A stretch of 64,000 nt of DNA from Candidatus Methylomirabilia bacterium (GTDB taxonomy: Bacteria > Methylomirabilota > Methylomirabilia > Rokubacteriales > CSP1-6): positions 113-64,112 of the forward strand of contig JBGQFW010000010.1 in assembly GCA_041497115.1 (NCBI GenBank). Direction: 5' to 3'. The notes below the pieces were generated by a model. The model had not been told where the DNA came from. It saw nothing but the letters and a program-made list of their open reading frames with translations, and did not search any database. The position numbers and the translations under genes were made by a program. Shown in pieces: positions 18,180 through 57,436 of the stretch (position 1 is its first letter; each line of letters opens with the position of its first letter).

Positions 18180-19256
18180 TCAGGCGACTTCGATGGCGTT
18201 GCGACCCAGCCGCTTGGCGACGTAGAGCGCGCGGTCGGCGGCGGGGATCAGGTCCTCGCTGCGCAGCACGTCCTCCGGCAGGGCGGCGATGCCGACGCTG
18301 ACGGTGAGCGGGCCGTGACCGAAGGGGTGGCGCTCGATGACGTCGCGGATGCGCTGGGCGTACTTCACGGCGCCGTTCTTGGGCGTGTTCACCAGGAGCA
18401 CGGCGAACTCGTCGCCGCCGTAGCGGGTGACGATCGAGAAGCTGCGCGAATGGGCGACGATGAGCTGCGCCGTCTCCCTGAGCGCCTCGTCGCCCGCGCG
18501 ATGGCCAAGCTGGTCGTTGATGTTCTTGAATCGGTCCACGTCGAGCAGCACGAGCGACAGCGGCTCGCCGAAGCGGGCGTGGCGCTTGGCCTCTTCATCG
18601 ATGCGCAGCGCGAAGTAGCGGCGATTGTAGACGCCGGTGAGCGGGTCCTTGAAGGAGAGCTCCTCCAGCCGCGCGTTGCGGATCGCCACCGCGGCCTGCG
18701 ACGCGAGAGCCTGGATCAGGCTCTCGAGCTCGGGATCGAACGACACCAGCTCGCCCGCCGCGTTGCGCGCGTTGATGAGCTGGAGCACGCCGATCACGTC
18801 CCCGGTCGGGTCCTGGAGCGGGACCACGAGGACCGAGCCGGTCTGATACTCCAGGCGTTCGTCGAGCTCCCGGTTGAAGACGTACGGGCGCCCGGTGGGG
18901 ACGCCGTAGGCGTCGGGGAGGCTGATCGACTGGCCGGTGAGCGCCACGTAGCCGGCCAGGCTCGGCTTCGTCAGCTTCAGCGGCTGGGTCGTGAGCCGTC
19001 GCCGCATCTCGCTCGCGCCCATGCGCCCGGCCAGCACGTCGTTCTGCGCCACCGCAAAGCGCAGGACGTCGCCCTCGCGGAGGAAGAGGGTGCCGCCCTC
19101 GGCGTTGGTGAACCGCCGGGCCTCGCAGACGATCCGCTCCAGCAGCGTGGACAGCTCGCGCTCGCTGGTGAGCGCGATCCCGACCTGGATGAGCTGCTTG
19201 AGCAGGAGGGTCACCTCGGGAGCGGACTTCGTGGGCTCGCTCGCATGCTCGCTCAT
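18180..19256 (-). CDS. GAF-domain diguanylate cyclase (GGDEF)
   Basis: N-terminal GAF domain (LLERIVCEARRFTNAEGGTLFL...). It is followed by DPLTGVYNRRYF...LDVDRFKNINDQLGHRAGDE...RYGGDEFAVLL...ADRALYVAKRLGRN. Confidence 0.85.
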   Translation of the reverse strand: MSEHASEPTKSAPEVTLLLKQLIQVGIALTSERELSTLLERIVCEARRFTNAEGGTLFLREGDVLRFAVAQNDVLAGRMGASEMRRRLTTQPLKLTKPSLAGYVALTGQSISLPDAYGVPTGRPYVFNRELDERLEYQTGSVLVVPLQDPTGDVIGVLQLINARNAAGELVSFDPELESLIQALASQAAVAIRNARLEELSFKDPLTGVYNRRYFALRIDEEAKRHARFGEPLSLVLLDVDRFKNINDQLGHRAGDEALRETAQLIVAHSRSFSIVTRYGGDEFAVLLVNTPKNGAVKYAQRIRDVIERHPFGHGPLTVSVGIAALPEDVLRSEDLIPAADRALYVAKRLGRNAIEVA

Positions 19257-19270
19257 CGGCTTGCGGCAAC

Positions 19271-19287
19271 TGCGAGCCGCATGCCAC
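19271..19287 (-). promoter_or_regulatory. Possible sigma-54-type promoter (TGGCAT-N5-TCGCA) upstream of the GAF-GGDEF gene
   Basis: On the minus strand, TGGCATGCGGCTCGCA has GG and GC separated by 10 nt, with one mismatch in the -12 TTGC box. It lies only 14 nt from the annotated ATG, which is suspiciously close. Confidence 0.3.
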
Positions 19288-19411
19288 CGGGTCGGTCGAC
19301 CTCCAAATTGCCGCTGTCACAGGGTTTTTGTGGTCGGATCGGGACCGAAGTCGGGTGACCGGCGGAAAGTTCGTTACCACTTGGTGATTTTCTTAACGCC
19401 CCTGGTTCGGC

Positions 19412-19417
19412 TACAAT
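19412..19417 (+). promoter_or_regulatory. Possible -10 hexamer TACAAT just upstream of the NtrC-family gene (near-leaderless transcript)
   Basis: TACAAT lies 10 nt before the ATG at 19428. There is no Shine-Dalgarno sequence between them and no convincing -35. Confidence 0.25.
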
Positions 19418-19427
19418 CGAATCGCCC

Positions 19428-20780
19428 ATGAACTCAGTTCTGGTCATCGACGACGAACGCAACATCCGCTCCCTCGTCGCGCGGGTGCTCGCCCAGGACA
19501 ACATCGAGATCCACACCGCCGGCACCGGCAAGGAGGGGCTCGAGCTGGCCGACCAGGTCGATCCCGACCTCGCGCTGGTAGATCTTCGATTGCCCGATAT
19601 CGACGGCATCCAGGTGCTGCGCGAGCTGCGGACACGCCACCCGCAGACGGCCGTCATCATGATCACGGCGTTCGGCCACATCGAGAGCGTGGTGGTGGCC
19701 ATGAAGAACGGCGCCACCGACTATCTCGAGAAGCCCTTCCAGCACCTCGAGAAGCTGCGCATCACGGTGAGCCGGGCGCTCGAAGAGGTCAAGGCCCGGC
19801 GCGAGATCAACCGGCTGCAGGGGCTGCAGCAGGGGCGGTACCGGACCGCCCAGATCATCGGTGAGTCCACCACCACCCGGCGGCTGCGGGAGGTGATCAC
19901 GCAGCTGGCGCAGAGCGAGGCGCACACGATCCTCGTGCAGGGCGAGAGCGGCACCGGCAAGGAGCTCGTCGCGCGGGGGCTGCACTTCGAGAGCGCGCGC
20001 CGCACCTCGCCGTTCATGGAGGTCAACTGCGCGGCGATCACCGAGACGCTCTTCGAGAGCGAGATCTTCGGCCACGAGAAGGGCGCCTTCACCGACGCCA
20101 AGGCCACCAAGAAGGGGCTGATGGAGCTGGCCGACGACGGCACGCTCTTCCTCGACGAGGTGGGCGAGATTCCCCTCGCGAGCCAGGCCAAGCTGCTCCG
20201 GTGCCTGCAGGAGCGCACCTTCAAGCGGGTGGGCGGGATCCGCGATCTCAAGGTGGACGTGCGCGTCATCGCCGCCACCAACCGGTCGCTGGAGACGATG
20301 GTGAAGGAGGGGAAGTTCCGCGAGGACCTCTTCTATCGCCTGAACGTCATCCCGCTCACGATTCCGCCGCTGCGCGAGCGGAAGGAGGACATCCTGCCGC
20401 TCGCCCGCCACTTCCTGGTCGAGGCGAACAGCACCTTCCACAAGACCGTCAAGCGCCTGGCCACCGAGACCGAGACGCTCCTGCTGGCCTACGCCTGGCC
20501 GGGCAACGTCCGCGAGCTCAAGAATCTCATCGAGCGGCTCGTGATCCTCAGCACCGGCGACACGATCGAGGCCGATCAGCTGCCGATGCCGGTCTCCGGC
20601 GCGGGCGACGGCCCGCTGGCCGAGGAAGTCTCCCGCGAGCCGCGCACCCTGGAGGCGGTCGAGCGCTCTTACATCCTCAAGGTGCTCCGTCAGGTCAACG
20701 GCAACAAGAGCGAGGCAGCCAAGATTCTCGGCATCACCCGCCAGACCCTCCGCAAGAAGCTCCCCGAAGCCTCGGCCTGA
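19428..20780 (+). CDS. Sigma-54-dependent response regulator (NtrC family: REC, AAA+, Fis-type HTH)
   Basis: REC domain (VLVIDDE...DLRLPDIDG...KP). Walker [15 protein letters not shown], the sigma-54 contact (GAFTGA) motif. LFLDEVGE. C-terminal [23 protein letters not shown]. Confidence 0.9.
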
Positions 20781-20789
20781 GCCCCTGAT

Positions 20790-20842
20790 TGATTCCTGAC
20801 CGCCCCCCCGGGCTGGGGGCCAGGGGGCCTGGATAGGAATCA
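20790..20842 (+). promoter_or_regulatory. Imperfect palindrome TGATTCC...GCCCCC...GGGGGC...GGAATCA. It is a candidate enhancer (UAS) for promoter P1, or alternatively a stem-loop after the NtrC-family gene.
   Basis: Outer 7-bp arms at 20790-20796 and 20836-20842, with inner 6-bp arms at 20802-20807 and 20823-20828. The GGAAT box starts exactly 87 nt upstream of the -24 GG, the same spacing as at P2. Confidence 0.4.
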
Positions 20843-20921
20843 GCCGGAAGGCCTGAAGCGCCACTGCGACAGGCATCAAAAACTCGATGTGAATAAGGGA
20901 GTTGTGGTCCACAGTCGGGTT

Positions 20922-20937
20922 TGGTACCCGCCTTGCG
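20922..20937 (+). promoter_or_regulatory. Sigma-54 (-24/-12) promoter P1: TGGTACCCGCCTTGCG
   Basis: GG (20923-20924) and GC (20935-20936) are separated by exactly 10 nt, matching TGGYAC-N5-TTGC. It lies 47 nt upstream of the ATG at 20984 and directly downstream of a sigma-54 activator gene. Confidence 0.7.
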
Positions 20938-20983
20938 TAACACCGGTCACGGTCGTCAGAGAGGCACGGGGGGGCAATTGACG

Positions 20984-22822
20984 ATGAGGCTGGCCATCCG
21001 GAAGGTGCAGATCGAGGACGCCGCGAAGCTGCAGATGCTGGTGGCGGAGAACATCGACGCCATCGAGCCCGGGCTCGTCGTCCTCGACTCGCGCCTGATC
21101 CTCGGCCATGCCACGATCGACGTGATCGGCGCGGACGCCGCCGGCGCGCTGGTGCTGATCGCCGCCGGCATCACCGCCAACGAGGAGATGCTGCTCAAGG
21201 CGGTCGAGGCGTATTCGTGGTGCCGCGAGTATCCCGAGTCGCTCGAGCGGCTCTACCCGAGCTGCGTGATCTCCGATGAGCGGCCTCCGCGCCTCATGTT
21301 CGTCGTCGAGCGGATGCCCGACGCCTTCCAGCGCAAGATCCGGCAGCTCGGCTTCCCCGAGGTGGACTGCGTCGAGTTCCGGCTGCTCGACGTCGAAGGC
21401 GCGAGTGCCGTCTACTTCGAGCCCATTCTGAAGATCCGGCGCGCCATCGCGGCGCCCGACCGGCCGGCGCCGCGGATCGAGACGCCGGCACCCGAGGCCG
21501 GCGCCGCCGCGACGGGCGACAAGGTGATCGCGATGAACGGCGCGCTCGCCGCCCGCGCCACCAGCCTCAAGCTCCAGAAGCTCCTGAACCAGGCCGTGGC
21601 CGAGGGGCCGATCACGGGCCCGCGTGCCGCCGACCGGCCGGCGCCCCCGCGCGAGCCGGCGTCGGTGGTGAGCATGGTGAGCCGCCAGTCCATCGCCAGG
21701 GTGCCGCGGCCCGAGCGCCCGCGCCCGGCCGTCGAGCCGGTGGCGCTGCGCCAGCCGCAGCCGCTGATCGCCGCGCCGGCGGCGAGCGTCGTCGAGCCGG
21801 AGCCGGCCCCGCGGCCCGAGCCCGAGCCGATCGTCGCGCCCGAGCGGCCGACGCTGCAGCTGGAGGCGCCGGTGGCCGTCGCCGAGCCGGCGGCGGTCGC
21901 CGAGCTGGTGGCCGCGCTCGCGCCGGTGAGCGCCGACGCCGCGCCGCTGGCCGTCGTCGAGCCCGTGGTGGTCGCGGAGGCGGTGCCCGAGCCGGTCGCC
22001 ATCGCGCCGGATGCCGCGATCGTGGCGCAGCTCGAGCGCGCCCTCGCCGAGCTCGAGACCGAGCGCCGGCCCGAGACCATCGCCGTCGAGCCGGAGCCCG
22101 CGCTCGAGACGCTCACTGTCGTCGCGACCCCGGAGCCGGCGCTCGAGACCGAGCGCGTCAGCCTGCGGTGCCTGTCCGAGCTCTCGATCGACCCGAGGGA
22201 GCCGGCCGCGCTGTCGACGCCGAGCGCGCCGGTCGTCGTCGCGCCCGAGCCCGCCGTCGCCGTCGAGGCCGAGCCTCAGGAGAAGCGCATCTCCTTCAAG
22301 GATCTGGCCGCCGCGCTGCTCGGCGGACCCGCCGCCGCCGCGCCCGTCGCGCCGGTGGCGGCGGCGCCCATCGTCGCCACGGCGCCCGTCGAGATCGAGC
22401 CGGTCGTGGTCTCGATCGTGATCGAGCCGGTGACGACCGTGGCCGAGCCCGAGCCGGCGCTCGCGCTGGTCGAGCGCGAGCCCGCGACGCCCGCCGAGCC
22501 CGAGACGTCGCGGGCCGCCCTCGAGGAGATCGTCGCGCTCGCCGCCGTCGAGACGCCCGAGATCGAGACGGCCATCGACATCGACGAGCCAGCCGGCGAG
22601 GATACGCTGACCGTGGAGGCCCTGGTCCAGAGCGTGCCCGTCGCCACTCCGGCGCAGGCGCCGACGCCCCCCGCGGCCGTGATCGAGCAGCAGGTCACCG
22701 ACACCGCCAAGCAGGTGCTGACGGCGATGCCCCAGGAATTCGAGGGGCTCAAGTTCCCCAACGACGGAGTGCTGACGCGCCAGTGGATGGAGTTTCTCAG
22801 CCAGATGTCGAACACGAAGTAG
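20984..22822 (+). CDS. Hypothetical protein: an N-terminal globular domain of about 160 aa (possibly a degenerate NucS/PD-(D/E)xK-like fold), a Pro/Ala/Glu/Val-rich acidic low-complexity region of about 400 aa, and a short C-terminal motif
   Basis: The ATG at 20984 is chosen because the track start at 20921 lies inside the promoter. N-terminus: MRLAIRKVQIEDAAKLQMLVAENIDAIEPGLVVLDSRLILGHATIDVIGADAAGALVLIAAG. Tail: FEGLKFPNDGVLTRQWMEFLSQMSNTK. Confidence 0.65.
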   Translation: MRLAIRKVQIEDAAKLQMLVAENIDAIEPGLVVLDSRLILGHATIDVIGADAAGALVLIAAGITANEEMLLKAVEAYSWCREYPESLERLYPSCVISDERPPRLMFVVERMPDAFQRKIRQLGFPEVDCVEFRLLDVEGASAVYFEPILKIRRAIAAPDRPAPRIETPAPEAGAAATGDKVIAMNGALAARATSLKLQKLLNQAVAEGPITGPRAADRPAPPREPASVVSMVSRQSIARVPRPERPRPAVEPVALRQPQPLIAAPAASVVEPEPAPRPEPEPIVAPERPTLQLEAPVAVAEPAAVAELVAALAPVSADAAPLAVVEPVVVAEAVPEPVAIAPDAAIVAQLERALAELETERRPETIAVEPEPALETLTVVATPEPALETERVSLRCLSELSIDPREPAALSTPSAPVVVAPEPAVAVEAEPQEKRISFKDLAAALLGGPAAAAPVAPVAAAPIVATAPVEIEPVVVSIVIEPVTTVAEPEPALALVEREPATPAEPETSRAALEEIVALAAVETPEIETAIDIDEPAGEDTLTVEALVQSVPVATPAQAPTPPAAVIEQQVTDTAKQVLTAMPQEFEGLKFPNDGVLTRQWMEFLSQMSNTK

Positions 22823-22836
22823 TGGGAAAGGAATTC

Positions 22837-24378
22837 ATGTCCTCTCCGGTGCCGGTGGTGCCCGCTCCCGAACCCCTGCGCGTCCTGGTCGTCGACGACA
22901 ACGCGTCGCTGCTGCGCTTCCTGGTGTCGGCCTTCTCGGCCAACGGCTGCACCGTCAGCCAGGCCGCCGCCGCCGAGCAGGCGCTGGGGCAGATCACCGA
23001 GCAGGCGTTCGACCTCGTCGTCTCCGACATCAAGATGCCCGGACTGTCGGGGCTCGACCTGCTCCGCGCGGTGAAGGGCAAGCAGCCGGCGACGCCGGTC
23101 GTGCTCATCACCGGCAACCCGTCGGTGAACTCGGCGGTGTTCGGCCTGCGCCATGGCGCCTACGACTACCTGCCGAAGCCGTTCTCGATCCGGGAGATCC
23201 AGCAGCTGCTGGCCCGCGTGCGCAGTGACCGCCAGAAGTGGGACGGCCAGGCGCCGCTGCCGGCCGGGCTCACCGAGGAGCTGGCCCGCCGCCAGCGGGG
23301 CGTGGAGGTCCTGTTCCGCATCGGCGACCTCGCGCTGCAGGGGCTGGACACCGCCACCTTCGTGGACGAGGTGCTCCGGCTCATGGTGCAGAGCCTCAAG
23401 AGCGACGCCGCCCTCGTGCTCCTGCGCGACGAGCAGGGCACGTTCAGCTCGAGCCAGCAGGGCGAGCCGACGCTGGTCACCCGCCTGCTGACGATGCTGC
23501 AGCGGTCGTTCGAGGACCTGGTCGCCACCGGCGGCAAGGAGATCCTCCCGCTCGCGACCGGCGGCGAGCCGCTCGACGCGATCGCCGCCGTCATTCCCGG
23601 TCTTGGGCGCTCCATGGGCATCGTCTGCCTGGCCCGCGAGACGGACTCCGGTGGCTTCCTGCCCGACGAGCGCGAGATGCTGCTCGGCTACGCCCAGACC
23701 ACGGCGGTGGCGCTGCAGAAGCTGATCCTGCGCGAGAACGTCGAGCGCAACCTCGTCGACACGATCACCGCCTTCGTCAACGCGATCGAGTCCAAGGACC
23801 GGTACCTGAAGGGCCACTCGGCGCGCGTCGCCCTCTTCGCGGCGGAGATCGCCCAGACGCTCGGCATGACGACCGAGATGGTCGACGTCGTCCGGCGCGG
23901 CGCCATGCTGCACGACCTCGGGAAGCTGTCCATCATGGACTCGATCCTCCGCAAGCCCGAGCGGCTGACCGCCGAGGAGTTCGCGATCATCAAGAGCCAT
24001 CCGGTGGTCGGCGCCAGGATCCTCGAGCCCCTCCGCTTCCTCTCCCGCGAGACGTGCGCGGTGCGCCACCATCACGAGCGGTTCGACGGCACCGGCTACC
24101 CCGACGGCCTCCGCGGCGAGGACATCCCGCTGGTGGCGCGGGTGGTGACGGTGGCCGACGTGTTCGACGCGATCACCTCCAACCGGCCGTATCGCACGGC
24201 GATGCCGCTCGACGCGGCCCGGGAGGAGATCGCGCGGGGCTGCGGCAGCCACTTCGATCCGGTCGTGGCGGAAGGGTTCCTCCGGATCCCGATGGCGCGG
24301 CTGGAGGAGATCACCCGCCACTACGAGAGTCTGACGAGCGCCGCCTTGAGCGCGCCCGCGCTGGCCCAGGCGAATTGA
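22837..24378 (+). CDS. Response regulator with REC, GAF and HD-GYP (c-di-GMP phosphodiesterase, RpfG-like) domains
   Basis: SD GGGAAAGGAA precedes the ATG at 22837. REC domain (RVLVVDDN...SDIKMPGLSG...KPF), HD motif (HSARVA...HDLGK) and HHERFDGTGYP. Confidence 0.85.
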   Translation: MSSPVPVVPAPEPLRVLVVDDNASLLRFLVSAFSANGCTVSQAAAAEQALGQITEQAFDLVVSDIKMPGLSGLDLLRAVKGKQPATPVVLITGNPSVNSAVFGLRHGAYDYLPKPFSIREIQQLLARVRSDRQKWDGQAPLPAGLTEELARRQRGVEVLFRIGDLALQGLDTATFVDEVLRLMVQSLKSDAALVLLRDEQGTFSSSQQGEPTLVTRLLTMLQRSFEDLVATGGKEILPLATGGEPLDAIAAVIPGLGRSMGIVCLARETDSGGFLPDEREMLLGYAQTTAVALQKLILRENVERNLVDTITAFVNAIESKDRYLKGHSARVALFAAEIAQTLGMTTEMVDVVRRGAMLHDLGKLSIMDSILRKPERLTAEEFAIIKSHPVVGARILEPLRFLSRETCAVRHHHERFDGTGYPDGLRGEDIPLVARVVTVADVFDAITSNRPYRTAMPLDAAREEIARGCGSHFDPVVAEGFLRIPMARLEEITRHYESLTSAALSAPALAQAN

Positions 24379-24752
24379 CGACGCCGCGCAAGAAGATCCT
24401 CATCGTGGACGACGCGGGGCCGGTGGTCGTGCTCTGCGTCAACGTGCTGCAGGCGCTGGGCTACGCCGTCAAGGGCGCCAATCGCGGCGAGGCCGCGCTC
24501 GAGCTCCTCGGCAAGGAGCCGTTCGATCTGATGGTGCTCGACTACAAGATGCCGGGGCTGAGCGGCTTCGAGGTCTTCGCGCAGGCCCGGCCGCTCCACC
24601 CCAACATGGCCATCGTGCTCGTGACCGGGCACGGCACTCCGGAGATCGTCAGCGAGGCCACTCGCATGGGTTTCAGCGCTATCCTACTCAAGCCGTTCAC
24701 GTCCGACGAGCTGCGCGGGACCGTTGAAAAGGTCCTGGCGGACCGCGGTTGA
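24375..24752 (+). CDS. Single-domain CheY-like response regulator
   Basis: KKILIVDD...LDYKMPGLSGFEV...LVTGHG...LLKPF. The only start upstream of the REC core is the TTG at 24375, which overlaps the previous stop (TTGA). Confidence 0.7.
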   Translation: MTTPRKKILIVDDAGPVVVLCVNVLQALGYAVKGANRGEAALELLGKEPFDLMVLDYKMPGLSGFEVFAQARPLHPNMAIVLVTGHGTPEIVSEATRMGFSAILLKPFTSDELRGTVEKVLADRG

Positions 24753-24818
24753 CGGGGGCTCGCGATGCACCCGCAGCCAAGCGTACACGCTCGCGGTTCG
24801 GCCACGGCGGAGGTCGTA

Positions 24819-25565
24819 ATGGGTTCCCTCCACAGCGGGTTGCAGTGGGGTGTCGACCGGATGCTGTCGGTCGGCTACGGCCTGCTCTACGACTATATCT
24901 TCGAGAAGTTCACCCCCTACCAGCACCTGCGCACGGAGGTGCTGGAGCTGATCGCCGCCTCGGCCAAGGAGGCGCCGGACCGCCGCGACGTGCAGGTCCT
25001 CGACGTCGACTGCGGGCCGGGCAACCTGACCTTCGTGATCGCGGAAGCCGGCTTCTCCGTCGTGGGGCTGGAGCCCTACGGCGCCCTGGTCGAGCTGGCC
25101 CGGGAAAAGCGGCGCGCCAAGCGCCTGGCCAATCTCGCGTTCACCCAGGGCGACCTCGCCACCGGAAAGACGTTGCGCGAGGGGTCGTTCGACCAGGTCG
25201 TGAACGTGCACTCGCTCTACGCGCACGCGGATCCGAAGGCGCTACTGGTCCAGGTCCACCGGGTGCTCAAGCCCGGCGGCCACGCCGTCTTCGTGAACCA
25301 CACGCGACGGGCGGACGTGCGCGCGACGTTCCGCGAGGTGCGGGCCCGCGAGGGGCTGGCCTCCGCGCTGCGCTGCCTGTTCCTCTGGCTGCTGCCGCAC
25401 TCGCTGTTCGAGGCCGCCCGCCGGCGGACCGGACCTCACTACTGGGGCGAGGCCGAATTCGCCTCGAACCTGCGCGCGGCGGGGTTCACGGTGCTGCAGG
25501 TCCGGCGCACGTTCCTCAACGGCGCCAGCCTGCTCGTCTGGGTCCGGAAGAACACGGCGGAGTAG
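24819..25565 (+). CDS. Class I SAM-dependent methyltransferase (paralog 1)
   Basis: VLDVDCGPGNL motif I and VLKPGGHAVF. The ATG at 24819 has a GGAGG SD at 5-nt spacing. The track start at 24765 is also possible. Confidence 0.75.
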   Translation: MGSLHSGLQWGVDRMLSVGYGLLYDYIFEKFTPYQHLRTEVLELIAASAKEAPDRRDVQVLDVDCGPGNLTFVIAEAGFSVVGLEPYGALVELAREKRRAKRLANLAFTQGDLATGKTLREGSFDQVVNVHSLYAHADPKALLVQVHRVLKPGGHAVFVNHTRRADVRATFREVRAREGLASALRCLFLWLLPHSLFEAARRRTGPHYWGEAEFASNLRAAGFTVLQVRRTFLNGASLLVWVRKNTAE

Positions 25566-25568
25566 CGG

Positions 25569-26327
25569 ATGGAGCTCGCGGGATCGATGGGTAATCGCGT
25601 CGCGTCGCCGCCGACCCTCGAGCGGCTGATCGCGGTCGGCTACGGGCTGACCTACGACGCCATCGTCCGCGGCTTCGGCCCGTACGAGGCGCTGCTCGAC
25701 GAGATCGTGGCCCTGGTGGGGCGCGCCGCGGTGCCGGGCCCGCCCACCGGCACGCGCGTGCTCGACGTCTCGTGCGGGATCGGCACCGTCGCCGAGCGGC
25801 TGGCCCGTCGCGGCTGGACGGTGGTGGCGCTCGACCCGGTCGCGCATCTGGTCGGTGTGGCCCGCCGACACCATCGCGACAGCGGCCTGTCGCTCAGCTT
25901 CCAGCACCTCGACGTCGCCCGCGAGCCTCCGCCCGAGGCCGGCACCTACGACGTCCTCGTCAGCATGCACACGCTCTACTGGCATCCCGATCCTGCCGCG
26001 TTGCTGGCGGCCTGCCGGCGGGCGCTGCGACCGGGCGGCTACGCGGTGTTCCTGACGTACGAGCGGCCCGCCCACGTGCTCCGCACGTTCGCGCAGGTGC
26101 GCGCGCAGCGCGGCTGGCTCCAGGCCCTGCGCGCCCTGCGCTGGCTCCTGCCGACGGCGCTGTTCGACGCGTTCCGCAGCGTCCGGCCCCGCTATCTGAG
26201 CCGGACGGAGTTCCTGGCCGCACTGCAGACGGCGGGCTTCGAGGTGCTGGAGACGCGCGAAACCTTCCTGGCGGGCATCAGCCTGCTGGCCTGGGCCCGG
26301 GTCAGCGACCCCAAGGGGGCGTCGTGA
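25569..26327 (+). CDS. Class I SAM-dependent methyltransferase (paralog 2)
   Basis: VLDVSCGIGTV motif I and ALRPGGYAVF. It is collinear with paralog 1 over its full length (VGYGL.YD.I...F.PY..L....). Confidence 0.75.
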   Translation: MELAGSMGNRVASPPTLERLIAVGYGLTYDAIVRGFGPYEALLDEIVALVGRAAVPGPPTGTRVLDVSCGIGTVAERLARRGWTVVALDPVAHLVGVARRHHRDSGLSLSFQHLDVAREPPPEAGTYDVLVSMHTLYWHPDPAALLAACRRALRPGGYAVFLTYERPAHVLRTFAQVRAQRGWLQALRALRWLLPTALFDAFRSVRPRYLSRTEFLAALQTAGFEVLETRETFLAGISLLAWARVSDPKGAS

Positions 26328-26354
26328 GCCTGATCAAATCGTTTCCGCATGTGC

Positions 26355-26384
26355 CATTCCGCCGGAGGGGTCCGGTAAGGAATG
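26355..26384 (+). promoter_or_regulatory. Palindrome CATTCC-g-CCGGA-gggg-TCCGG-taa-GGAATG. It is a candidate enhancer (UAS) for promoter P2.
   Basis: 6-bp outer arms and 5-bp inner arms. The GGAAT box (26379) starts exactly 87 nt upstream of the -24 GG (26466), as at P1. The two sites share the box AGGAAT(C/G)AGCCG. Confidence 0.4.
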
Positions 26385-26464
26385 AGCCGACCGCGTCGGC
26401 GCACGCAGCGGAGATGATCAATATTCGTCTTATATGGGAGCTATTTATAGCGAGGAGTGGGCGT

Positions 26465-26480
26465 TGGTACCGGCCTTGCT
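26465..26480 (+). promoter_or_regulatory. Sigma-54 (-24/-12) promoter P2: TGGTACCGGCCTTGCT
   Basis: GG (26466-26467) and GC (26478-26479) are separated by 10 nt. It is nearly identical to P1. It lies in a locally AT-richer intergenic region, about 90 nt upstream of the ATG at 26569. Confidence 0.7.
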
Positions 26481-26568
26481 TTACGTAACAGTGCCCGCAA
26501 CCGCGGGGGTCGAGTTGAAGCCTCGCACTGGCAAGCGAGCAAACGGTGAGCGGAGACAGGAGAACGAG

Positions 26569-27246
26569 ATGAACACGATCACGAAGCGAGTCATTGCAGT
26601 CGCAGGCCTGGCAGTCCTGGCGCTGGCCGGGGTGCCGGCCGTTGCCAGTGCAGACGGCGCCCGGCTGTACGAGATGACCGAGAACATGAAGCTGACGGCG
26701 CACGGGAAGTTCGAGCATCGCAAGGCGACGTCCGAGCTGATCGGGACCGCCGACGCCGGCACGCCCCTGTGCCCGGCGTGGCTCGGGGTAGCGTCGTGCA
26801 CGATCAACGCGACGGGCTCGGACAACATCAACCTGGCCACCGGGCTGGGCAACTTCGGCGGGACCTTCACCGTGGTGGTGCAGGGCGACAACAACTCCGA
26901 TTCCCCGGAGTTCGTCGTCATGAAGGGCACCTTCAAGGGCAAGATGGATTTCTCGCCGGCGATCATCTACGGCATTCCGCTCGGTCACGTGGTGGGCAAG
27001 CTGCAGCCCACCGGGAGCGCTGACGTTCCGTTCACCGGCACCTTCCGGCTGCCCTTCGTGCTGCCGTACCCGGATGTGGCGGTGTTCGGGGCTGCGCCGC
27101 TGCCGCTGAACCCGATGGACCGCTACGACGTCACGCAGACGACGCGGCCCCTCTACCTGCTGGACGACATGCAGCAGATCATGCCCGTGCAGGCCAGCGA
27201 GTTCGGGGCCGGCTACGCGACCGTGAAGTTCGAGATCAGCTTCTAG
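26569..27246 (+). CDS. Secreted hypothetical protein (Sec signal peptide, beta-rich, two Cys)
   Basis: SD GGAGACAGGAG. Signal peptide MNTITKRVIAVAGLAVLALAGVPAVASA. I recognise no family. Confidence 0.7.
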   Translation: MNTITKRVIAVAGLAVLALAGVPAVASADGARLYEMTENMKLTAHGKFEHRKATSELIGTADAGTPLCPAWLGVASCTINATGSDNINLATGLGNFGGTFTVVVQGDNNSDSPEFVVMKGTFKGKMDFSPAIIYGIPLGHVVGKLQPTGSADVPFTGTFRLPFVLPYPDVAVFGAAPLPLNPMDRYDVTQTTRPLYLLDDMQQIMPVQASEFGAGYATVKFEISF

Positions 27247-27260
27247 GAGACGCACGGACC

Positions 27261-27614
27261 ATGAGCGCCGTGGCGATCGCAGAGCGTGAGGACCGTCGGA
27301 CGGACGACGCGCAGGCCCTCGAGGGCCTGCTGCGTCTGCGTCTGGCCGGTCCCCTCACCGCGGCCACGGCGCCGACGCTTCGCACGCGCGTGCGGGATGC
27401 GGTCAGCCGCGGCCGGGCGCGCGTGGTCGTGGATCTGCAGGCTGTGACCGGGCTCGATGCCGCCGGCATCGCGGCCCTGCTCGATGCGCGTCGCGTCATC
27501 CAGGCGCAGGACGGCGGCACACTCGTCCTGCGCGCCAACGGAGTCGTGTGCCGGGCGCTCAAGGAAACGGGGACGATCGCCGCCTTCGCGCTCTGGAACG
27601 GTCCCGGAATGTGA
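27261..27614 (+). CDS. STAS-domain protein (anti-sigma-factor-antagonist fold) lacking the phosphorylatable Ser
   Basis: LRLAGPLTAATAPTLR...VVVDLQAVTGLDAAGIAALLDA...LVLRANGVVCRALKETG. The DSSG position reads DAAG. Confidence 0.75.
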   Translation: MSAVAIAEREDRRTDDAQALEGLLRLRLAGPLTAATAPTLRTRVRDAVSRGRARVVVDLQAVTGLDAAGIAALLDARRVIQAQDGGTLVLRANGVVCRALKETGTIAAFALWNGPGM

Positions 27615-28280
27615 TCTCGGTGGAGCGCCAAGGGGCTGACGCCCCGTCCACATCACAGTCCCCGCGCCCTGCCGAGCAGGGCGTCGTCATCTCACGCGGG
27701 ACTCGCGTCTATCTGCGCACCATGACGCTCAGGGACCTCGACCTCTTCAACCGCTGGGTCGAGGACCCGTTCCTGGAGCGCATGGTCGGCAGCGAGCTCC
27801 TCCAGTCGTACAAGCACGTGTGGGACAAGTCGCCGGCGTTCTACGAGGCCGTGCTGACCGATCCCACCCAGGTCGTGCTGGTCATCGAGGCCTGCCGCGG
27901 CTGGACGGCACCGGTGGGGGTGGTGCGCCTGTTCAACATCCACCTGCTGGAGGGGTACGCGTTCCTGGAGACGATCATCACCGATGTCCGTGCAATGAAG
28001 CGCGGTTTCGGCGTGGAAGCGGGTAAACTCATCTCCTACTATGGGGTGGACGTCCTCGGCCTGCGGCGCATCGAGGCGAAGGTCTACGAGTACAACGTGC
28101 TCAGCATGAACTCACTCCGGCGCAACGGCTTCCAGCAGGAGGGTGTCCTCCGCCAGGCGGGGTTCGACGGCGAGCGCTACTGGGATCTCGTGATCTTCGG
28201 CATCCTCAAGGACGAGATCGAGGCCGTGCGCAGGCGGGACAAGGTCTACCTTCCTCTCGATTCGTCCGAGGGGAACGGGC

Positions 28281-28294
<14 letters not shown>
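27611..28294 (+). CDS. GNAT-family N-acetyltransferase (RimJ/RimL-like)
   Basis: VYLRTMTLRDLDLFNRWVEDP...RRIEAKVYEYNVLSMNSLRRNGFQQEGVLR. The GTG at 27611 overlaps the STAS stop (GTGA). Later starts (GTG 27620, or the ATG of MTLRD) are possible. Confidence 0.7.
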
Positions 28295-30428
<2,134 letters not shown>

Positions 30429-30438
30429 AAGGACGACC

Positions 30439-33117
30439 ATGCCGATCAGCCGCCGCGACTCCAAGAAGGCCAAGATCCTCTACATCGAGGACAACCGCGA
30501 GAACCGGATGCTGGTCCGCGCGATCCTCGAGGCCGAGGGCTACACGATCGTCGACGCCGAGGACGGCCTGGCCGGCATCGAAGCGGCGATCCGGGAGGAG
30601 CCGGCGCTGATCCTGCTGGACGTGAACCTGCCGGCCATCGACGGGTACGAGGTCGTCGCGGTCATCAAGTCGTTCCCCGCGTTCGCCACCACGCCGGTCA
30701 TCGCGGTGACCGCCTACGCGATGGAGGGCGACCGCCAGCGCACGCTGGTGGCCGGCTGCGACGGCTACATCCAGAAGCCGATCGACGTGGACGCGTTCCC
30801 GAAGCAGGTCGAGGAGTTCCTGCACGGCAAGCGCGAGCACGTCGAGGAGCGCGAGGCGGGCATCTACCTCCGCGAGCTGAACCAGCGCCTGGTCTACCGG
30901 CTGGTGAACCAGGTCGAGGAGCTCAAGCGCCTCAACCAGCACTTCGTCCGCCGCGCCACCCAGCTCGCCGACCTGCATCGCGCGGTGCAGGACATCACCT
31001 CCGAGGTCGGGGTCGCCCCGATGCTCGAGCAGCTGCTGCCTGCGCTGTCCCGCGCGCTCGGCACCCGCAGCCTGACCGTCGAGCTGGCGGACTCCGACGT
31101 GAAGGTGGCGGCGAGCGGTGAGGCGGCCGAGCGGCCGCGCAGCGTGCTGGCCGGCGCCGGCGTGGCGCCGGGCGACGACTGGACAGAGGTGGACTGGACG
31201 CTGCCGCTGATCGTGCGGGGCCACTCGCTCGGCGTGATGACCGCGCGGCACGTGCTGCCGCCCGGCGCCAAGGCCGACGAGGAGCAGCTGCTCAACATCG
31301 TGGCCAACCAGGTGGCGATCGCCGTGGAGAACGCCCGGCTCTACGACGGCGTCGTGCAGCGGGCGGCCGAGCAGCAGAGCCTCGTCGAGGCCGGCCATCT
31401 GCTCGCGTCCTCGCTGCGGCTGGCCGACGTGCTGCAGCAGTTCACCGAGCTGGTGCGCTCGCGCGTCGGCCTCGACGTCGTCCGCATCTGGCTGCAGGAG
31501 GGCACCGGCGACTATCGCCTTCACGCGCAGGCCGGCCTGGCCGAGCAGCCCGACGACCGGCGCCAGCACTTCGAGCCCGGCGAGGGCATCGTCGGCTGGG
31601 TGATGGAGCACCTCGCGCCGCTCGTCATCCCGGATCTGCAGGTGGATCCGCGCCTCAAGGGGCGCGAGTGGGCGAAGTCCGAGGGGCTGATGTCGCTGGT
31701 GGCGGTGCCGCTGCTCCTGGCGGACGCGCCGGTCGGCGTGCTGGTCGGCGTGGCCCGGCAGCGACGCGACTTCAACCGCGAGGAGGTGGCGCTCGTCCAG
31801 GCGCTGGCCACCTCGGCGGCGGTGGCCATCCGCAATGCGCGGCTGCACGAGGAGACCCAGCTCCGCCTGCGCCACACCGAGACGCTGGTGTCGGTCAGCC
31901 AGGCGATCGGCGCCACGCTCGACCTCTCGGAGGTGCTGCGGCGGGCCACGCGCGAGATGGTGCGCGCGCTCGGCGGCGACATGGGCGTCGCCTGGTTGAT
32001 CACGCCCGACCGCTCGCGATTCGTGCCGCTGGTCGGCTACCACATTCCCAAGGACGTGCTCAACACGCCGGTCGCGGCCAGCCTGGAGATGGCGGATCCG
32101 GTGATCCGCGCGCTGCAGATCTCGAAGGGGCCGATCGCCGCCGCCGACAGCCAGAGCGAGGCGTGGAGCAGCATGCCGGCGGCCCGCGCGGTGAGCCACA
32201 AGTCCATGCTCATCCAGCCCATCTACTGGAAGGACGAGCTGATCGGCGGCTTCTCGGTCCTGTGGCTCAAGGAGGCGCACCGCTTCACGCCCGACGAGCT
32301 GCGGCTGGCGGAGGGCATCGCGCTGCAGGGCGCGCTGGCCATCGAGAACTCGCGGCTGTTCGAGGGGGTCAAGCAGCAGATGGCCGAGCTCAAGCAGACC
32401 CAGGCCCAGCTCGTGCAGTCCACCAAGCTGGCCGCCATCGGCGAGCTGGCCGCCAACATCGCCCACGAGATCAACAACCCACTCACCACCGTGCTCGGCT
32501 TCGCCTCCTTCATCGCCGAGCGGCTGCCCGCCGAGGATCCGATGCGCGAGGAGCTGGGCCTCATCCAGGAGGAGGCCTCGCGGGCGCGCGACATCGTGCG
32601 CGACCTGCTGCAGTTCAGCCGCCAGCGCGACTTCATGCCGGAGCCGACCGACCTCAACACCGTCCTCGAGCAGGTCGTGGGCATGGTGCGGCGGCAGGGC
32701 GCCTTCAACACCGTCACCGTCAGCGAGGCCTACGCCCCCGATCTGGCGATGGTCGAGATGGACGTGTCCCGCATCAAGCAGGTCTTCCTCAACATCATCA
32801 ATAACGCCGTCTACGCGATGAAGGACGGCGGTACGCTCACGATCCGCACCACGCCCACCGCCGACACCGTGCGGGTGGCCTTCGAGGACACCGGCCCCGG
32901 CATCCCGCCCGAGATCCTCGGCCGCATCTTCGACCCGTTCTTCACGACGAAGCCCGAGGTGAGCGGGACCGGGCTCGGCCTGTCCGTCAGCCTCGGGATC
33001 GTGCAGAGCCACGGCGGGACGATCGACGTGCAGAGCGCGCTGGGCAAGGGCACGACGTTCACGGTGACGCTGCCGTTCAAGCTCGACGGCGGCGAGGGCG
33101 CCGGGACGGCCGACTAG
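30439..33117 (+). CDS. Hybrid signalling protein: N-terminal REC, multiple GAF domains, HisKA and HATPase_c
   Basis: REC domain (KILYIEDN...LDVNLPAIDG...KP). Repeated GAF signatures (VAIAVENARLY, AAVAIRNARLH, GALAIENSRLF). H-box ANIAHEINNPL, DTGPGI and GTGLGLS. Confidence 0.85.
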   Translation: MPISRRDSKKAKILYIEDNRENRMLVRAILEAEGYTIVDAEDGLAGIEAAIREEPALILLDVNLPAIDGYEVVAVIKSFPAFATTPVIAVTAYAMEGDRQRTLVAGCDGYIQKPIDVDAFPKQVEEFLHGKREHVEEREAGIYLRELNQRLVYRLVNQVEELKRLNQHFVRRATQLADLHRAVQDITSEVGVAPMLEQLLPALSRALGTRSLTVELADSDVKVAASGEAAERPRSVLAGAGVAPGDDWTEVDWTLPLIVRGHSLGVMTARHVLPPGAKADEEQLLNIVANQVAIAVENARLYDGVVQRAAEQQSLVEAGHLLASSLRLADVLQQFTELVRSRVGLDVVRIWLQEGTGDYRLHAQAGLAEQPDDRRQHFEPGEGIVGWVMEHLAPLVIPDLQVDPRLKGREWAKSEGLMSLVAVPLLLADAPVGVLVGVARQRRDFNREEVALVQALATSAAVAIRNARLHEETQLRLRHTETLVSVSQAIGATLDLSEVLRRATREMVRALGGDMGVAWLITPDRSRFVPLVGYHIPKDVLNTPVAASLEMADPVIRALQISKGPIAAADSQSEAWSSMPAARAVSHKSMLIQPIYWKDELIGGFSVLWLKEAHRFTPDELRLAEGIALQGALAIENSRLFEGVKQQMAELKQTQAQLVQSTKLAAIGELAANIAHEINNPLTTVLGFASFIAERLPAEDPMREELGLIQEEASRARDIVRDLLQFSRQRDFMPEPTDLNTVLEQVVGMVRRQGAFNTVTVSEAYAPDLAMVEMDVSRIKQVFLNIINNAVYAMKDGGTLTIRTTPTADTVRVAFEDTGPGIPPEILGRIFDPFFTTKPEVSGTGLGLSVSLGIVQSHGGTIDVQSALGKGTTFTVTLPFKLDGGEGAGTAD

Positions 33118-41981: not shown

Positions 41982-42014
41982 CGTCCGGCCCCGTCCTGGG
42001 AGCATGCTGGGCCC

Positions 42015-43211
42015 GTGAACACGGTGCTGCTGCGCCTGGTCCCCGGCGCCCTCCTGCTCATCGCGTCCGCCCTCGCCCTGAGCGGCAGCCTGCGGACGGC
42101 GGTGTGGCCGCTGGTGCCCGCCTACCCGCTGGTGGTGCTGGGCGGCGGTCTCCTGCTGGCGTGGCGGTTCGATCGCAGCCGTCTCGTCCTCGCCCTCGCG
42201 GTCCTGCTGCTGACCGAGCGCGCGCTGGTGCTGTGGGCGCCGTTCGGCGGGGGCGGCGAGGTCAGCCGCGCGGTGTTCGGGGCGCTCGCGCTCCTCGTCC
42301 CGCTCGACCTGGCCGCGCTCACCTGGCTGCCCGAGCGCGGCCTGTTCGCCCGCCCCGGCCGCCTCGCGCTCGGCGTGCTGGGCGGCGAGATCGTCCTCGT
42401 CACGCTGTTCTGCCAGCCCCTCTTCCTCCCGCTCGCCACGCGCCTGGACGGCATGCACGCCGGCCCCGGGCTCGGCGGGCTGCCGGCCGTCTCGCTCGGC
42501 GCCTTCGTGCTCGCCTTCGCCGTGCTGGCGCGACGGGCCGTGCTGCAGGTGACCGCGGTGGAGAGCGGGGCCGTGTGGAGCCTGGTGGCCGCGCTCCTGG
42601 CGCTGGCCTCGGGGGGCGGCGGCCTCGACTCGAGCGTGTTCCTCGCCACCGGCGGTCTCATCCTCGTGCTCTCGCTCATCGAGACGTGGCACGGCATGGC
42701 CTACAACGACGAGCTCACCGGGCTGCCCGCCCGGCGCGCGCTGAACGAGGCGCTGGCGCGCCTGCGCGGCGTGTACGCGGTGGCCATGGTGGACCTCGAC
42801 CATTTCAAGCGCTTCAACGACGAGCACGGCCACGACGTCGGCGATCAACTCCTCCGCATGGTGGGCGCGCGTCTGGGCGAGATCGGGGGCGGCGGGCGGG
42901 CGTTCCGCTACGGGGGTGAGGAGTTCGCGGTGCTCTTCTCCGGCCGCGACGCCGACGAGGCGCGCGGCCACATGGAGGCGGTGCGCCGGACGATCGAGCG
43001 CTCGCCGTTCGTCCTGCGCGGCCCCCACCGGCCGCGCGCGCGACCGGAGGGGCCGGCGGCGGCCGTCGAGCGCCGGCGCATCGCGGTCACCGTCAGCGTC
43101 GGCATCGCCGCCACCGACAGCGAGGCGGTGACGCCCGAGGAGGTCGTGCGGGCGGCGGACCAGGCCCTCTACCGCGCCAAGCAGGCGGGGCGCAACCGGG
43201 TCGCGACGTGA
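42015..43211 (+). CDS. Membrane-anchored diguanylate cyclase (GGEEF)
   Basis: About 6 TM helices, then DELTGLPARRAL...VDLDHFKRFNDEHGHDVGDQ...RYGGEEFAVLF...ADQALYRAKQAGRN. Confidence 0.8.
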   Translation: MNTVLLRLVPGALLLIASALALSGSLRTAVWPLVPAYPLVVLGGGLLLAWRFDRSRLVLALAVLLLTERALVLWAPFGGGGEVSRAVFGALALLVPLDLAALTWLPERGLFARPGRLALGVLGGEIVLVTLFCQPLFLPLATRLDGMHAGPGLGGLPAVSLGAFVLAFAVLARRAVLQVTAVESGAVWSLVAALLALASGGGGLDSSVFLATGGLILVLSLIETWHGMAYNDELTGLPARRALNEALARLRGVYAVAMVDLDHFKRFNDEHGHDVGDQLLRMVGARLGEIGGGGRAFRYGGEEFAVLFSGRDADEARGHMEAVRRTIERSPFVLRGPHRPRARPEGPAAAVERRRIAVTVSVGIAATDSEAVTPEEVVRAADQALYRAKQAGRNRVAT

Positions 43212-44230: not shown

Positions 44231-44251
44231 GAGAGGGCTTCGGCCTGAGCG

Positions 44252-45541: not shown

Positions 45542-45610
45542 GTCGCGCCCGTCTCCCGGGCGCGGATCGAGCGTATCACGGATGGCGGAGCGCGGCAGGT
45601 GGAGTGTACG

Positions 45611-45829
45611 ATGCGCCGCATGAGCGAGACGGCCCAACCCGGCGAGGCGGAGATCCTCCACGCGCTGATCCGCCGGCGCTACGGCGACCGGCTCACCGCC
45701 GAGGAGCTCGACAGCGTGCGCCGCGGCGTGGAGGCGCTCGTCGAGCAGGCCGCCGCGCTGCGGGCGGTGCGCCTGGCCAATGCGGACGAGCCCGTGCAGC
45801 GCTTCGTCCCGTTCCGCGCCGACGCGTGA
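45611..45829 (+). CDS. Small protein (72 aa), GatC/AtzG-like (DUF4089-like) putative amidase partner
   Basis: Tail ...LRAVRLANADEPVQRFVPFRADA resembles GatC/AtzG C-termini. Its stop overlaps the amidase GTG (GTGA). Confidence 0.4.
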   Translation: MRRMSETAQPGEAEILHALIRRRYGDRLTAEELDSVRRGVEALVEQAAALRAVRLANADEPVQRFVPFRADA

Positions 45830-47214: not shown

Positions 47215-47225
47215 CGCCCCGCGCC

Positions 47226-54019: not shown

Positions 54020-54114
54020 GGTTCCCCTCCTCGCGGGGCGCGTGCGCCGGTCATCGGCCGCGCCGACCGTAGCACCGGGGCGCGGCCTCGGCAACCGCGG
54101 GGCGGCGCGCGGCG

Positions 54115-57384: not shown

Positions 57385-57436
57385 GCCGCGAGCGTAGGTG
57401 CGGGCGCCGGGCGCGTCAAGGTGGGCGCGCGGCGGC

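Follow-up and report, generated by a model that had tools for sequence, protein, structure and literature searches.

A predicted sigma-54 regulon with c-di-GMP enzymes and two sensor kinases in Rokubacteria

AtoS and ZraS are the partner kinases of sigma-54 activators, AtoC and ZraR, whose target promoters combine a -24/-12 element with an upstream activating sequence. Other described circuits join two-component proteins to small molecules or to cyclic di-GMP (c-di-GMP): the RpfC-RpfG (diffusible signal factor) system of Xanthomonas, the PhcBSRQ system of Ralstonia, in which an S-adenosylmethionine (SAM) methyltransferase makes the signal, and the LuxO/sigma-54 relay of Vibrio. Rokubacteria are abundant in soil and sediment and have large genomes; to our knowledge none has ever been cultured, and we know of almost no study of how they sense their surroundings. 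Here we analyse a 64,000-nt stretch of DNA from a Candidatus Methylomirabilia bacterium (contig JBGQFW010000010.1; hereafter the window, 66-79% G+C), in which positions 18180 to 33117 hold an island of signalling genes. We consider it likely, from the conserved gene order and promoter elements, that a sigma-54 regulon particular to the Rokubacteria/Methylomirabilota lineage is controlled from this island. A search of a limited collection of literature returned no paper connecting Rokubacteria with sigma-54, and none on the island's combination of genes.

Each of the described systems resembles the island in part. The island's REC-AAA+-HTH_8 activator has AtoC as its best NCBIfam match (NF008469), the core of its second kinase is nearest to AtoS (239 bits) and ZraS (196 bits), and its target promoters likewise pair a -24/-12 element with an upstream activating sequence. 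However, both proteins score under the equivalog cut-offs; because the activator reaches 480 bits against a curated cut-off of 714, we regard it from its sequence as AtoC-like, not AtoC, and the AtoS score compares with a cut-off of 646. In addition, the island kinase is encoded inside a target operon and not beside the activator, it adds an N-terminal receiver and three GAF domains, and the content of the regulon is unrelated. With RpfC-RpfG the island shares a REC-HD-GYP protein whose gene clusters with those of a sensor kinase and of candidate small-molecule enzymes, but it lacks an RpfF-type crotonase (no island gene has a crotonase domain in Pfam) and the hybrid architecture of RpfC, and its REC-HD-GYP protein has a GAF-like insert between the two domains and is under predicted sigma-54 control. 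As in PhcBSRQ, a methyltransferase, a kinase and several receivers are encoded together; the island differs in having two paralogous methyltransferases plus a GNAT acetyltransferase and in an output through a sigma-54 activator rather than a LysR-type one, and no specific similarity to PhcB was seen, no search having been aimed at it. With the LuxO relay it shares membrane kinase(s) of hybrid type and an NtrC-family activator, LuxQ and LuxO being among the better NCBIfam matches, but it encodes no Hpt protein and its predicted targets are protein-coding operons, not small RNAs. The closest analogies in logic are the LuxO-type relays and the Phc and Rpf circuits, whose defining genes are absent from the island. 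Its parts are familiar (AtoSC/ZraSR-type two-component proteins, an RpfG-like protein, GGDEF, STAS and GNAT), and together they are predicted to form an enhancer-binding-protein two-component regulon with c-di-GMP enzymes.

Genes were called by frame analysis of third-position GC (GC3) and checked with Pfam and NCBIfam scans. All 13 genes and both sigma-54 promoters listed by the original prediction, which had been made from the sequence alone, were recovered at their places (Table 1). Junctions within the operons are spaced by 3-14 nt or overlap by 4-14 nt: the CheY-like gene starts with TTG and overlaps by 4 nt the stop codon of the REC-HD-GYP gene, and the 3' end of the GNAT gene shares 14 nt with the start of the seven-transmembrane (7TM) kinase gene. 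We judged which parts are core and which accessory on 17 island and flank proteins across 22 genome loci with 10-kb flanks. In 16 of these loci, all from Rokubacteria/Methylomirabilota, we found the order activator, Orph (hereafter the hub protein), REC-HD-GYP, CheY, methyltransferase(s), exported protein, (STAS), GNAT, 7TM kinase, REC-GAF kinase, with identities to the window of 56-92%. When metagenomes were scanned with the hub protein's most divergent relatives, a further contig, of lower GC, was found, L039, which carries the full core at 56-69% identity with another left flank. In several short metagenome contigs the activator, hub protein and HD-GYP genes are adjacent, and DNA nearly identical to the window is present in many sediment metagenomes. 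The CheY-like receiver is 54-87% identical across loci (68-87% outside L014), and the GNAT protein, present in all syntenic loci, is 69-88% identical. The GGDEF gene is found in 10 syntenic loci and is missing from L005, L014, L017 and the divergent lineage, the STAS gene is missing from 7 of the 16, and L016 has a single methyltransferase gene. On this sequence comparison, the core consists of ten genes, and GGDEF and STAS are accessory.

The promoters suggest that the two operons of the island belong together. Matches to the sigma-54 pattern TGGYAC-N5-TTGC occur at only two places in the window, at 20922 (TGGTACCCGCCTTGC) and 26465 (TGGTACCGGCCTTGC); both lie on the forward strand, in the two intergenic gaps where sigma-54 promoters had been predicted, ahead of the hub-protein gene (P1) and of the exported-protein gene (P2). 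Only 0.04 matches were expected, and none of 100 shuffles reached two. Both sites have the GG at -24, the GC at -12 and the 10-nt spacing of the sigma-54 consensus. Of the 13 genome loci that have the region ahead of the hub-protein gene, 12 carry a strict match to TTGGTAC-N5-TTGCT there; 14 of the 16 syntenic genome loci carry a strict -24/-12 match ahead of the exported-protein gene, the exceptions (in the island slot) being L008 and L016. The upstream regions of P1 and P2 in the window are 71% identical in alignment to each other, and across loci the two promoters have in common a proximal motif, (A/G)(A/G)AATCA-N-CC, plus a distal block that holds its inverse some 45 bp farther upstream. 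We found 43 matches to the motif RRAATCRNYC in 924 kb, both strands counted; 22 of them lie upstream of sigma-54-like sites, 19 at 84-89 bp from the -24 element. The activator gene lies 140 bp upstream of P1, and the recognition helix of its helix-turn-helix domain is nearly invariant in 17 orthologues, which, together with its L1 loop, fits a conserved DNA site. Because the -24/-12 element and the upstream motif at a fixed distance of 84-89 bp are common to both promoters and conserved among loci, P1 and P2 are probably co-regulated by the adjacent activator, in line with the original prediction. Two divergent loci, L016 and L039, depart from this: their P1 has a looser -24 box, TGGTCy, and no more than 60-80 bp, without a clear upstream motif, separate the exported-protein gene from the gene before it. 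Given so short a gap, the eleven genes may form one transcript from P1 in these loci.

The gene order bears on the possibility that the two operons are functionally unlinked and stand together by chance, or are merely inherited side by side through the collinearity of Rokubacteria genomes. A transketolase-like gene on the left and glucokinase, aldolase and GH63 genes on the right are also conserved beside the island in most loci, so that some of the synteny simply reflects collinearity among related genomes, a point that weighs against our reading. Yet the core is kept with other flanks in L007, L008, L016 and L039, P1 and P2 have in common the -24/-12 element and the fixed-distance upstream motif, start and stop codons overlap inside the operons, and in divergent lineages the block is possibly a single operon. 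We therefore regard mere juxtaposition as very improbable; the block had been predicted to be a unit, and its co-conservation in 16 genome loci and L039 upholds this.

Table 1. Coordinates of the genes and predicted control elements of the island, as positions in the window.
Feature	Position	Strand	Evidence or remark
GAF-GGDEF diguanylate cyclase, 358 aa	18180..19256	-	Pfam GGDEF 1.4e-41, GAF 3.3e-17
P0, sigma-54-like -24/-12 element TGGCATG-N4-CTCGCA	19271..19286	-	15-30 nt before GGDEF start
Conserved element GGTGATTTTCTTAAC upstream of activator gene	19383..19397	+	resembles reversed P1/P2 motif
Sigma-70-type -10 box TACAAT	19412..19417	+	10 nt before activator ATG
REC-AAA+(Sigma54_activat)-HTH_8 activator, NtrC/AtoC type, 450 aa	19428..20780	+	Pfam Sigma54_activat 1.2e-68, Response_reg, HTH_8
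P1 distal upstream element CCTGATTGATTCCTGACCG	20784..20802	+	conserved block CTGG....TTTCTG.CC in P1 alignment; includes inverse of proximal motif
P1 proximal upstream activating motif ATAGGAATCAGCCGG	20833..20847	+	86 bp ahead of -24 element
P1, sigma-54 promoter TTGGTACCCGCCTTGCG	20921..20937	+	pattern match, conserved upstream of hub-protein gene
Hub protein (Orph), 612 aa, acidic, isoelectric point 4.47	20984..22822	+	no Pfam match
REC-(GAF-like)-HD-GYP phosphodiesterase	22837..24378	+	Pfam HD_5 9.2e-39, Response_reg 1.3e-26, GAF 0.0036 (weak)
CheY-like single-domain receiver	24375..24752	+	Pfam Response_reg 3.1e-24
SAM methyltransferase MT1, class I	24765..25565 (alternative start 24819)	+	Pfam Methyltransf_23/31/11/25
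SAM methyltransferase MT2, class I, MT1 paralogue	25569..26327	+	
P2 proximal upstream activating motif TAAGGAATGAGCCGA	26376..26390	+	
P2, sigma-54 promoter TTGGTACCGGCCTTGCT	26464..26480	+	pattern match, conserved upstream of exported-protein gene
Exported all-beta protein (Sec), 225 aa, signal peptide MNTITKRVIAVAGLAVLALAGVPAVASA then DG	26569..27246	+	no Pfam match
STAS-domain protein, 117 aa	27261..27614	+	Pfam STAS 4.7e-14
GNAT acetyltransferase, Acetyltransf_3	27611..28294 (alternative start 27722)	+	Pfam 2.6e-09
7TM-GAF histidine kinase (HisKA_7TM, GAF, HisKA, HATPase_c)	28281..30428	+	Pfam
REC-3xGAF-HisKA-HATPase histidine kinase	30439..33117	+	Pfam

The activator has the features of the NtrC family: a REC domain with its phospho-acceptor Asp, an AAA+ sigma-54 interaction domain and HTH_8. 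Its own expression appears to start from a different kind of promoter. The sigma-70-type box ahead of the gene is conserved as TACAAT/TAGAAT in the aligned GGDEF-bearing loci and in L005, L014 and L017, and is replaced by GCTATTTTA or a similar sequence in the divergent lineage; a generic sigma-70 scan gave nothing above threshold in the region upstream of the activator. Because the box lies 10 nt from the ATG, it implies that the activator mRNA is near-leaderless. The GGDEF gene likewise would have a very short leader, and leaderless mRNAs may be common in the lineage. The element GGTGATTTTCTTAAC is present in all loci, including those that lack the GGDEF gene, and is flipped (GGTAAGAAATTGG) in the divergent lineage; its sequence points weakly to a candidate site for autoregulation of the activator. 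The divergent GGDEF gene has a possible sigma-54 element of its own, P0, which is kept as TGGCAyG-N4-CTCGC in 9 of the 10 loci with this gene, the remainder of the spacer being poorly conserved. Its -12 reads TCGC, not TTGC, and since this departure speaks against it, we consider P0 only tentatively as a third, weaker sigma-54 promoter of the regulon. The best argument that it is real comes from a paralogous GGDEF locus, described below, which has canonical sigma-54 promoters on both strands.

Three REC domains had been predicted in the island; we found four, and the acceptor Asp is present in all four. It had also been proposed that the two kinases are the partners of these receivers, the activator included. 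This is plausible in so far as an AtoS/ZraS-like core, that of the REC-3xGAF kinase, is matched by an AtoC-like activator. The core of the 7TM kinase is nearest to the hybrid-type kinases HrmK/TorS/BarA/LuxQ (NCBIfam), and the protein has about seven hydrophobic segments within aa 1-290 and no periplasmic domain. Receiver similarity, for its part, is silent on pairing: the receiver domains are mutually 18-33% identical, a range in which the comparison is uninformative. On the strength of the core families, we suggest as a specific assignment that the REC-GAF kinase serves the activator and that the 7TM kinase serves one or more of the other receivers, a possibility to which we give somewhat less than an even chance.

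The island encodes enzymes predicted to act in both directions on c-di-GMP. The active site of the GGDEF protein is intact (RYGGDEF, aa 278-284); RSFS stands in place of the RxxD I-site, so that product inhibition of the cyclase is not expected. The HD-GYP motifs are intact as well (HDLGK at aa 359 and HHERFDGTGYP at aa 412), and the REC-HD-GYP protein is, by its motifs, an RpfG-like predicted c-di-GMP phosphodiesterase. The original description of this protein as REC-GAF-HD-GYP stands for REC and HD-GYP, while the GAF domain scores below the Pfam threshold.

The hub protein, encoded first in the P1 operon, had been described as an acidic, scaffold-like orphan. That description needs revision: an exhaustive profile search gathered 579 clusters (at 50% identity) of relatives of its N-terminal domain, and this domain has a recognisable, nuclease-dead PD-(D/E)xK fold. 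The hub protein had no match in Pfam, NCBIfam or PADLOC, and its family profile matched no PDB sequence. The AlphaFold2 model of its well-conserved first 150 residues (nt 20984-21439; predicted local distance difference test, pLDDT, 86.9) gave as best Foldseek match the catalytic domain of EndoMS/NucS (5gke; E 2e-6, TM-score 0.52, about 121 columns), and matched other PD-(D/E)xK proteins too. D46 is invariant, and the position of the catalytic ExK reads A-A-G or A-x-G throughout the family. Because the ExK is replaced family-wide, the hub protein, judged from model and alignment together, is almost certainly not a nuclease. Nor is it a NucS/EndoMS member: the predicted fold resembles the catalytic domain, and NucS likewise terminates in a short partner-binding peptide, but the catalytic ExK is lost, there is no sequence similarity, the N-terminal DNA-binding domain of NucS is absent, and a disordered insert is present. 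This insert, rich in P, A, E and V, spans about 430 aa in the window and varies from 300 to 550 residues across loci. It is followed at the C-terminus by the peptide PQEFEGLKFPNDGVLTRQWMEFLSQM (nt 22730-22819), the invariant terminal peptide, also read as FEGLKFPNDGVLTRQWMEFLSQM; architecture and peptide are conserved in 12 loci. In divergent members of the family the peptide W-x-x-F-L is repeated several times in the disordered region, and these repeats look like a multivalent docking motif.

A nuclease-like fold encoded next to methyltransferases also raises the possibility of a defence or toxin system, for which the PD-(D/E)xK fold itself and a match of the methyltransferases to the PADLOC model mad2 could be cited. 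However, the ExK residues are lost throughout the hub family, mad2, the only PADLOC match, spans no more than the generic SAM-binding fold, and the surrounding genes are housekeeping genes with no sign of mobility. We consider a defence role extremely unlikely.

Relatives of the hub protein recur beside c-di-GMP genes elsewhere. Members of a subfamily that we call Orph2, found in Rokubacteria (one record is labelled Binatia), have the same N-terminal domain, repeated GELAPQWRKFLD peptides and an additional C-terminal domain. In five contigs (L023-L027, e.g. L024:7487-11614), Orph2 is divergent from two to three tandem GAF-GGDEF genes, whose products share 59-63% full-length identity with the island GGDEF protein; one copy has a degenerate active site (DGDGF). 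The spacer between them carries TGGCAC-N5-TTGCT towards Orph2 and TGGCAT-N5-TTGCT towards the cyclases. Judged from these sequences, the arrangement of a GAF-GGDEF gene, divergent sigma-54 promoters and a NucS-like disordered protein occurs twice; in the island version, the activator gene is inserted between the GGDEF and hub genes. Because the hub family is recurrently paired with GAF-GGDEF genes, it may work with c-di-GMP enzymes, an idea that we put forward as doubtful.

The exported protein, Sec, heads the P2 operon and had been called a secreted orphan, a label that at least 340 homologues, none of them named, take away. It has a single N-terminal hydrophobic segment, a Sec-type signal peptide (AxA site, no lipobox), and a strongly conserved polar core (LYELTENM, QGDNxxDSPE, GKMDFSPA, FTGTFRLPF, plus two Cys). 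Its relatives are confined to metagenome-assembled genomes (MAGs) of Candidatus Rokubacteria/Methylomirabilota (GTDB, one genome per species). Together with the sediment matches noted above, this marks the window as a piece of the chromosome of an uncultured Rokubacterium. The AlphaFold2 model is all-beta with long hairpins (pLDDT 82.7) and gave no significant PDB fold match (best E 0.07); there was no PDB sequence match either. A C-terminal Phe and weak porin-like matches led us to consider an outer-membrane barrel, which we leave open: by eye, the strands are not clearly amphipathic.

Sec genes occur in several copies (three loci in one MAG), with stand-alone copies in unrelated contexts, and those in the island slot divide among at least seven clades, with stand-alone paralogues interspersed. 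Where the kinases are 88-90% identical to those of the window, the slot copy is only 35-63% identical. Given this identity of 35-63% against about 90% for its neighbours, the slot has evidently been refilled, as the sequences read, by different paralogues in different lineages, an observation drawn from the window and L001, L002, L004, L013, L020 and L021. All stand-alone copies that we inspected are preceded by a sigma-54-type -24/-12 element of their own, several of them by a recognisable upstream motif too. Because the dispersed copies bear these elements, the regulon probably extends beyond the island, with the Sec family as its probable main exported output. The island had been described as self-contained; these dispersed Sec paralogues and the separate hub/GAF-GGDEF locus argue otherwise. 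Two short GC-rich hairpins (CCCG-N5/6-CGGG and CTCGC-N4/8-GCGAG; 26494-26539 in the window) recur in Sec leaders, those of stand-alone paralogues included. We rejected a structured leader RNA in the Sec mRNAs, as RNAalifold covariation was negligible and there was no Rfam match.

The same distribution bears on the idea that Sec is not an output but a periplasmic co-sensor of the 7TM kinase, comparable to LuxP-LuxQ or TorT-TorS. Its gene is the first in the operon of a kinase that lacks an extracytoplasmic domain, as would suit such a role. But Sec is multi-copy, with stand-alone copies remote from any kinase, the island-slot copies spread over at least seven clades mixed with dispersed paralogues, and their identity to the window copy falls to 35-37% where the kinase is 88-89% identical. 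On this evidence we think a co-sensor role quite improbable, and we continue to regard Sec as an output of the regulon.

MT1 and MT2 are 44% identical over 232 aa. Every NCBIfam score of the pair is far below its cut-off, the weak matches being to UbiG/UbiE, PmtA, fatty-acid O-methyltransferase and HQNO methyltransferase, and their PDB relatives are small-molecule and lipid methyltransferases; we class them by sequence as generic class I enzymes of the small-molecule type. Such enzymes would suit an autoinducer-type circuit in the style of PhcB-PhcS (Ralstonia) or CqsA-CqsS/LuxO (Vibrio), in which the methyltransferases, with or without the GNAT protein, would make or modify a hydrophobic signal that Sec carries or presents and the 7TM kinase senses. 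The small-molecule and lipid character of the weak matches is consistent with this, as are the inclusion in the same sigma-54 regulon of both the methyltransferases and a membrane kinase without a periplasmic domain and the weak resemblance of the Sec model to beta-barrel and lipid-binding folds. On the other side, the methyltransferase matches all stay below the family cut-offs, one lineage encodes only one methyltransferase, the Sec fold matches are not significant, and Sec diverges and is swapped while the kinase stays 86-90% identical, a poor fit to a specific pair of carrier and sensor. We therefore hold an autoinducer circuit to be unlikely, if less so than a co-sensor role for Sec.

The STAS protein has GLDAAG in place of the motif with the phosphorylatable Ser (DSSG) of SpoIIAA/RsbV-type antagonists, and a Pfam search found no anti-sigma kinase or PP2C partner among the island genes. 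The island is thus like the HptB-HsbR-HsbA-HsbD system of Pseudomonas, in which a STAS protein controls a diguanylate cyclase, in encoding a STAS protein with two-component and c-di-GMP genes, and unlike it in lacking the PP2C/anti-sigma kinase partner and the phosphorylatable Ser, and in that so many of the syntenic loci do without the STAS gene. In L001 a STAS gene is also next after a stand-alone Sec paralogue; STAS and Sec genes may travel together.

Together, these results suggest the following model. The activator would be made from its own sigma-70-type, near-leaderless promoter, and a cue perceived by the 7TM region in the membrane, by the six GAF domains or by both would raise its phosphorylation. 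Bound at RRAATCANCC sites, it would open the sigma-54 promoters P1, P2 and probably P0. From P1 would come the hub protein, the phosphorylation-gated HD-GYP phosphodiesterase, the CheY-like receiver and the two small-molecule methyltransferases; from P2, the exported beta-protein, sometimes the STAS protein, the GNAT protein and both sensor kinases. The dispersed Sec genes would be switched on by the same activator. The likeliest phosphodonor of the activator would be the REC-GAF kinase with its AtoS-like core, which would entail positive feedback, since more of both kinases would be made. The 7TM kinase, with its hybrid-type core, would be the likeliest donor for the stand-alone receiver, that of the HD-GYP protein and/or that of the second kinase, and the CheY-like receiver may be a phosphate sink or an adaptor. 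The peptide motifs of the hub protein may gather the cyclase and the gated phosphodiesterase. In net effect, a cue would trigger a self-amplifying transcriptional switch, leading to a local reset of c-di-GMP and a changed set of exported proteins. The original prediction had also proposed such a feedback loop and, as output, the modification of proteins or small molecules together with a secreted factor; both are conjectural. The gene content, its conservation, the promoter elements and their common cis motif are read directly from the sequences; the phosphorylation pairs, the feedback, the coupling of c-di-GMP to the hub protein and the physiological output are what we infer from these arrangements. 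In particular, that the output is a changed exported-protein set coupled to a local change in c-di-GMP is a tentative guess, and one we expect to be wrong rather than right. Less probable still is a bolder version, in which the hub protein would represent a new kind of c-di-GMP-linked hub that recruits receivers or cyclases through W-x-x-F-L, and its activator would drive a hypervariable, paralogue-swapping exported set as a surface/secretome switch of Rokubacteria.

Besides the collinearity of the flanks and the -12 of P0, several findings weigh against this reading. The -24 box of P1 and P2 is TGGTAC, not TGGCAC (T, not C, at -22), and the L1 loop of the activator is GAFTDA in 17 of 17 orthologues, a one-residue variant of GAFTGA. 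The receivers give no pairing signal. The methyltransferases cannot be assigned a substrate from NCBIfam and PDB matches that are only generic to class I, and the GNAT protein, of the RimJ/PseH/SpeG kind with all scores below the NCBIfam cut-offs, gives no substrate. The hub protein is tied to c-di-GMP by gene neighbourhood alone. The gene rpoN is absent from the 64-kb window, the rest of the genomes not having been searched for it, and in two metatranscriptomes no more than a few near-identical fragments turned up, unusable for the promoters.

We rejected peaks of metatranscriptome depth as a signal of expression, as they come from other organisms, whose conserved AAA+ and HATPase segments cross-map here. 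In the freshwater metatranscriptome X25, a few contigs have 0-6 differences to 19625-19952, 26644-26785 and 27903-28302, in the regions of the activator, the exported protein and the GNAT/kinase junction; they hint at transcription in situ, though DNA carry-over is possible.

The genes around the island are ordinary metabolic and housekeeping genes, and neither a tRNA gene nor an Rfam match is present anywhere in the window. We rejected a mobile island in view of these neighbours, the lack of a tRNA gene in the window and a GC dip that is modest. G+C is 66-71% in the island and clearly higher, 76-79%, at 42000-48000 and 54000-58000. Elsewhere in the window, 42015-44230 encodes a second GGDEF protein, membrane-anchored (398 aa, GGEEF) and unrelated to the island, followed with a stop/start overlap by a JmjC/cupin-like protein. 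At 44252-45829, gene calls are uncertain because frame analysis yields overlapping candidate open reading frames on both strands, and 50445-54094 holds two adjacent, well-supported open reading frames of 911 aa (+) and 305 aa (-) without a Pfam match at E <= 1e-5. On the reverse strand, 54115-57384 encodes a 1089-aa protein with a zinc ribbon, an adenylate/guanylate cyclase domain and an AAA_16 (STAND-type) ATPase, which could be a source of cyclic nucleotide for nearby GAF domains.

If the output of the island is merely a routine, lineage-specific stress or surface response, then the value of these findings is mainly one of annotation. Even so, the island offers a compact, conserved and experimentally tractable regulon: its activator is defined, its DNA site is predicted, and it comprises two to three promoters and two candidate kinases. 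Two sizeable unassigned families, that of the NucS-like hub protein and that of the exported beta-protein, gain a regulatory context, and the recurrent pairing of the hub family with GAF-GGDEF genes is a concrete lead to a possible new partner protein of c-di-GMP.

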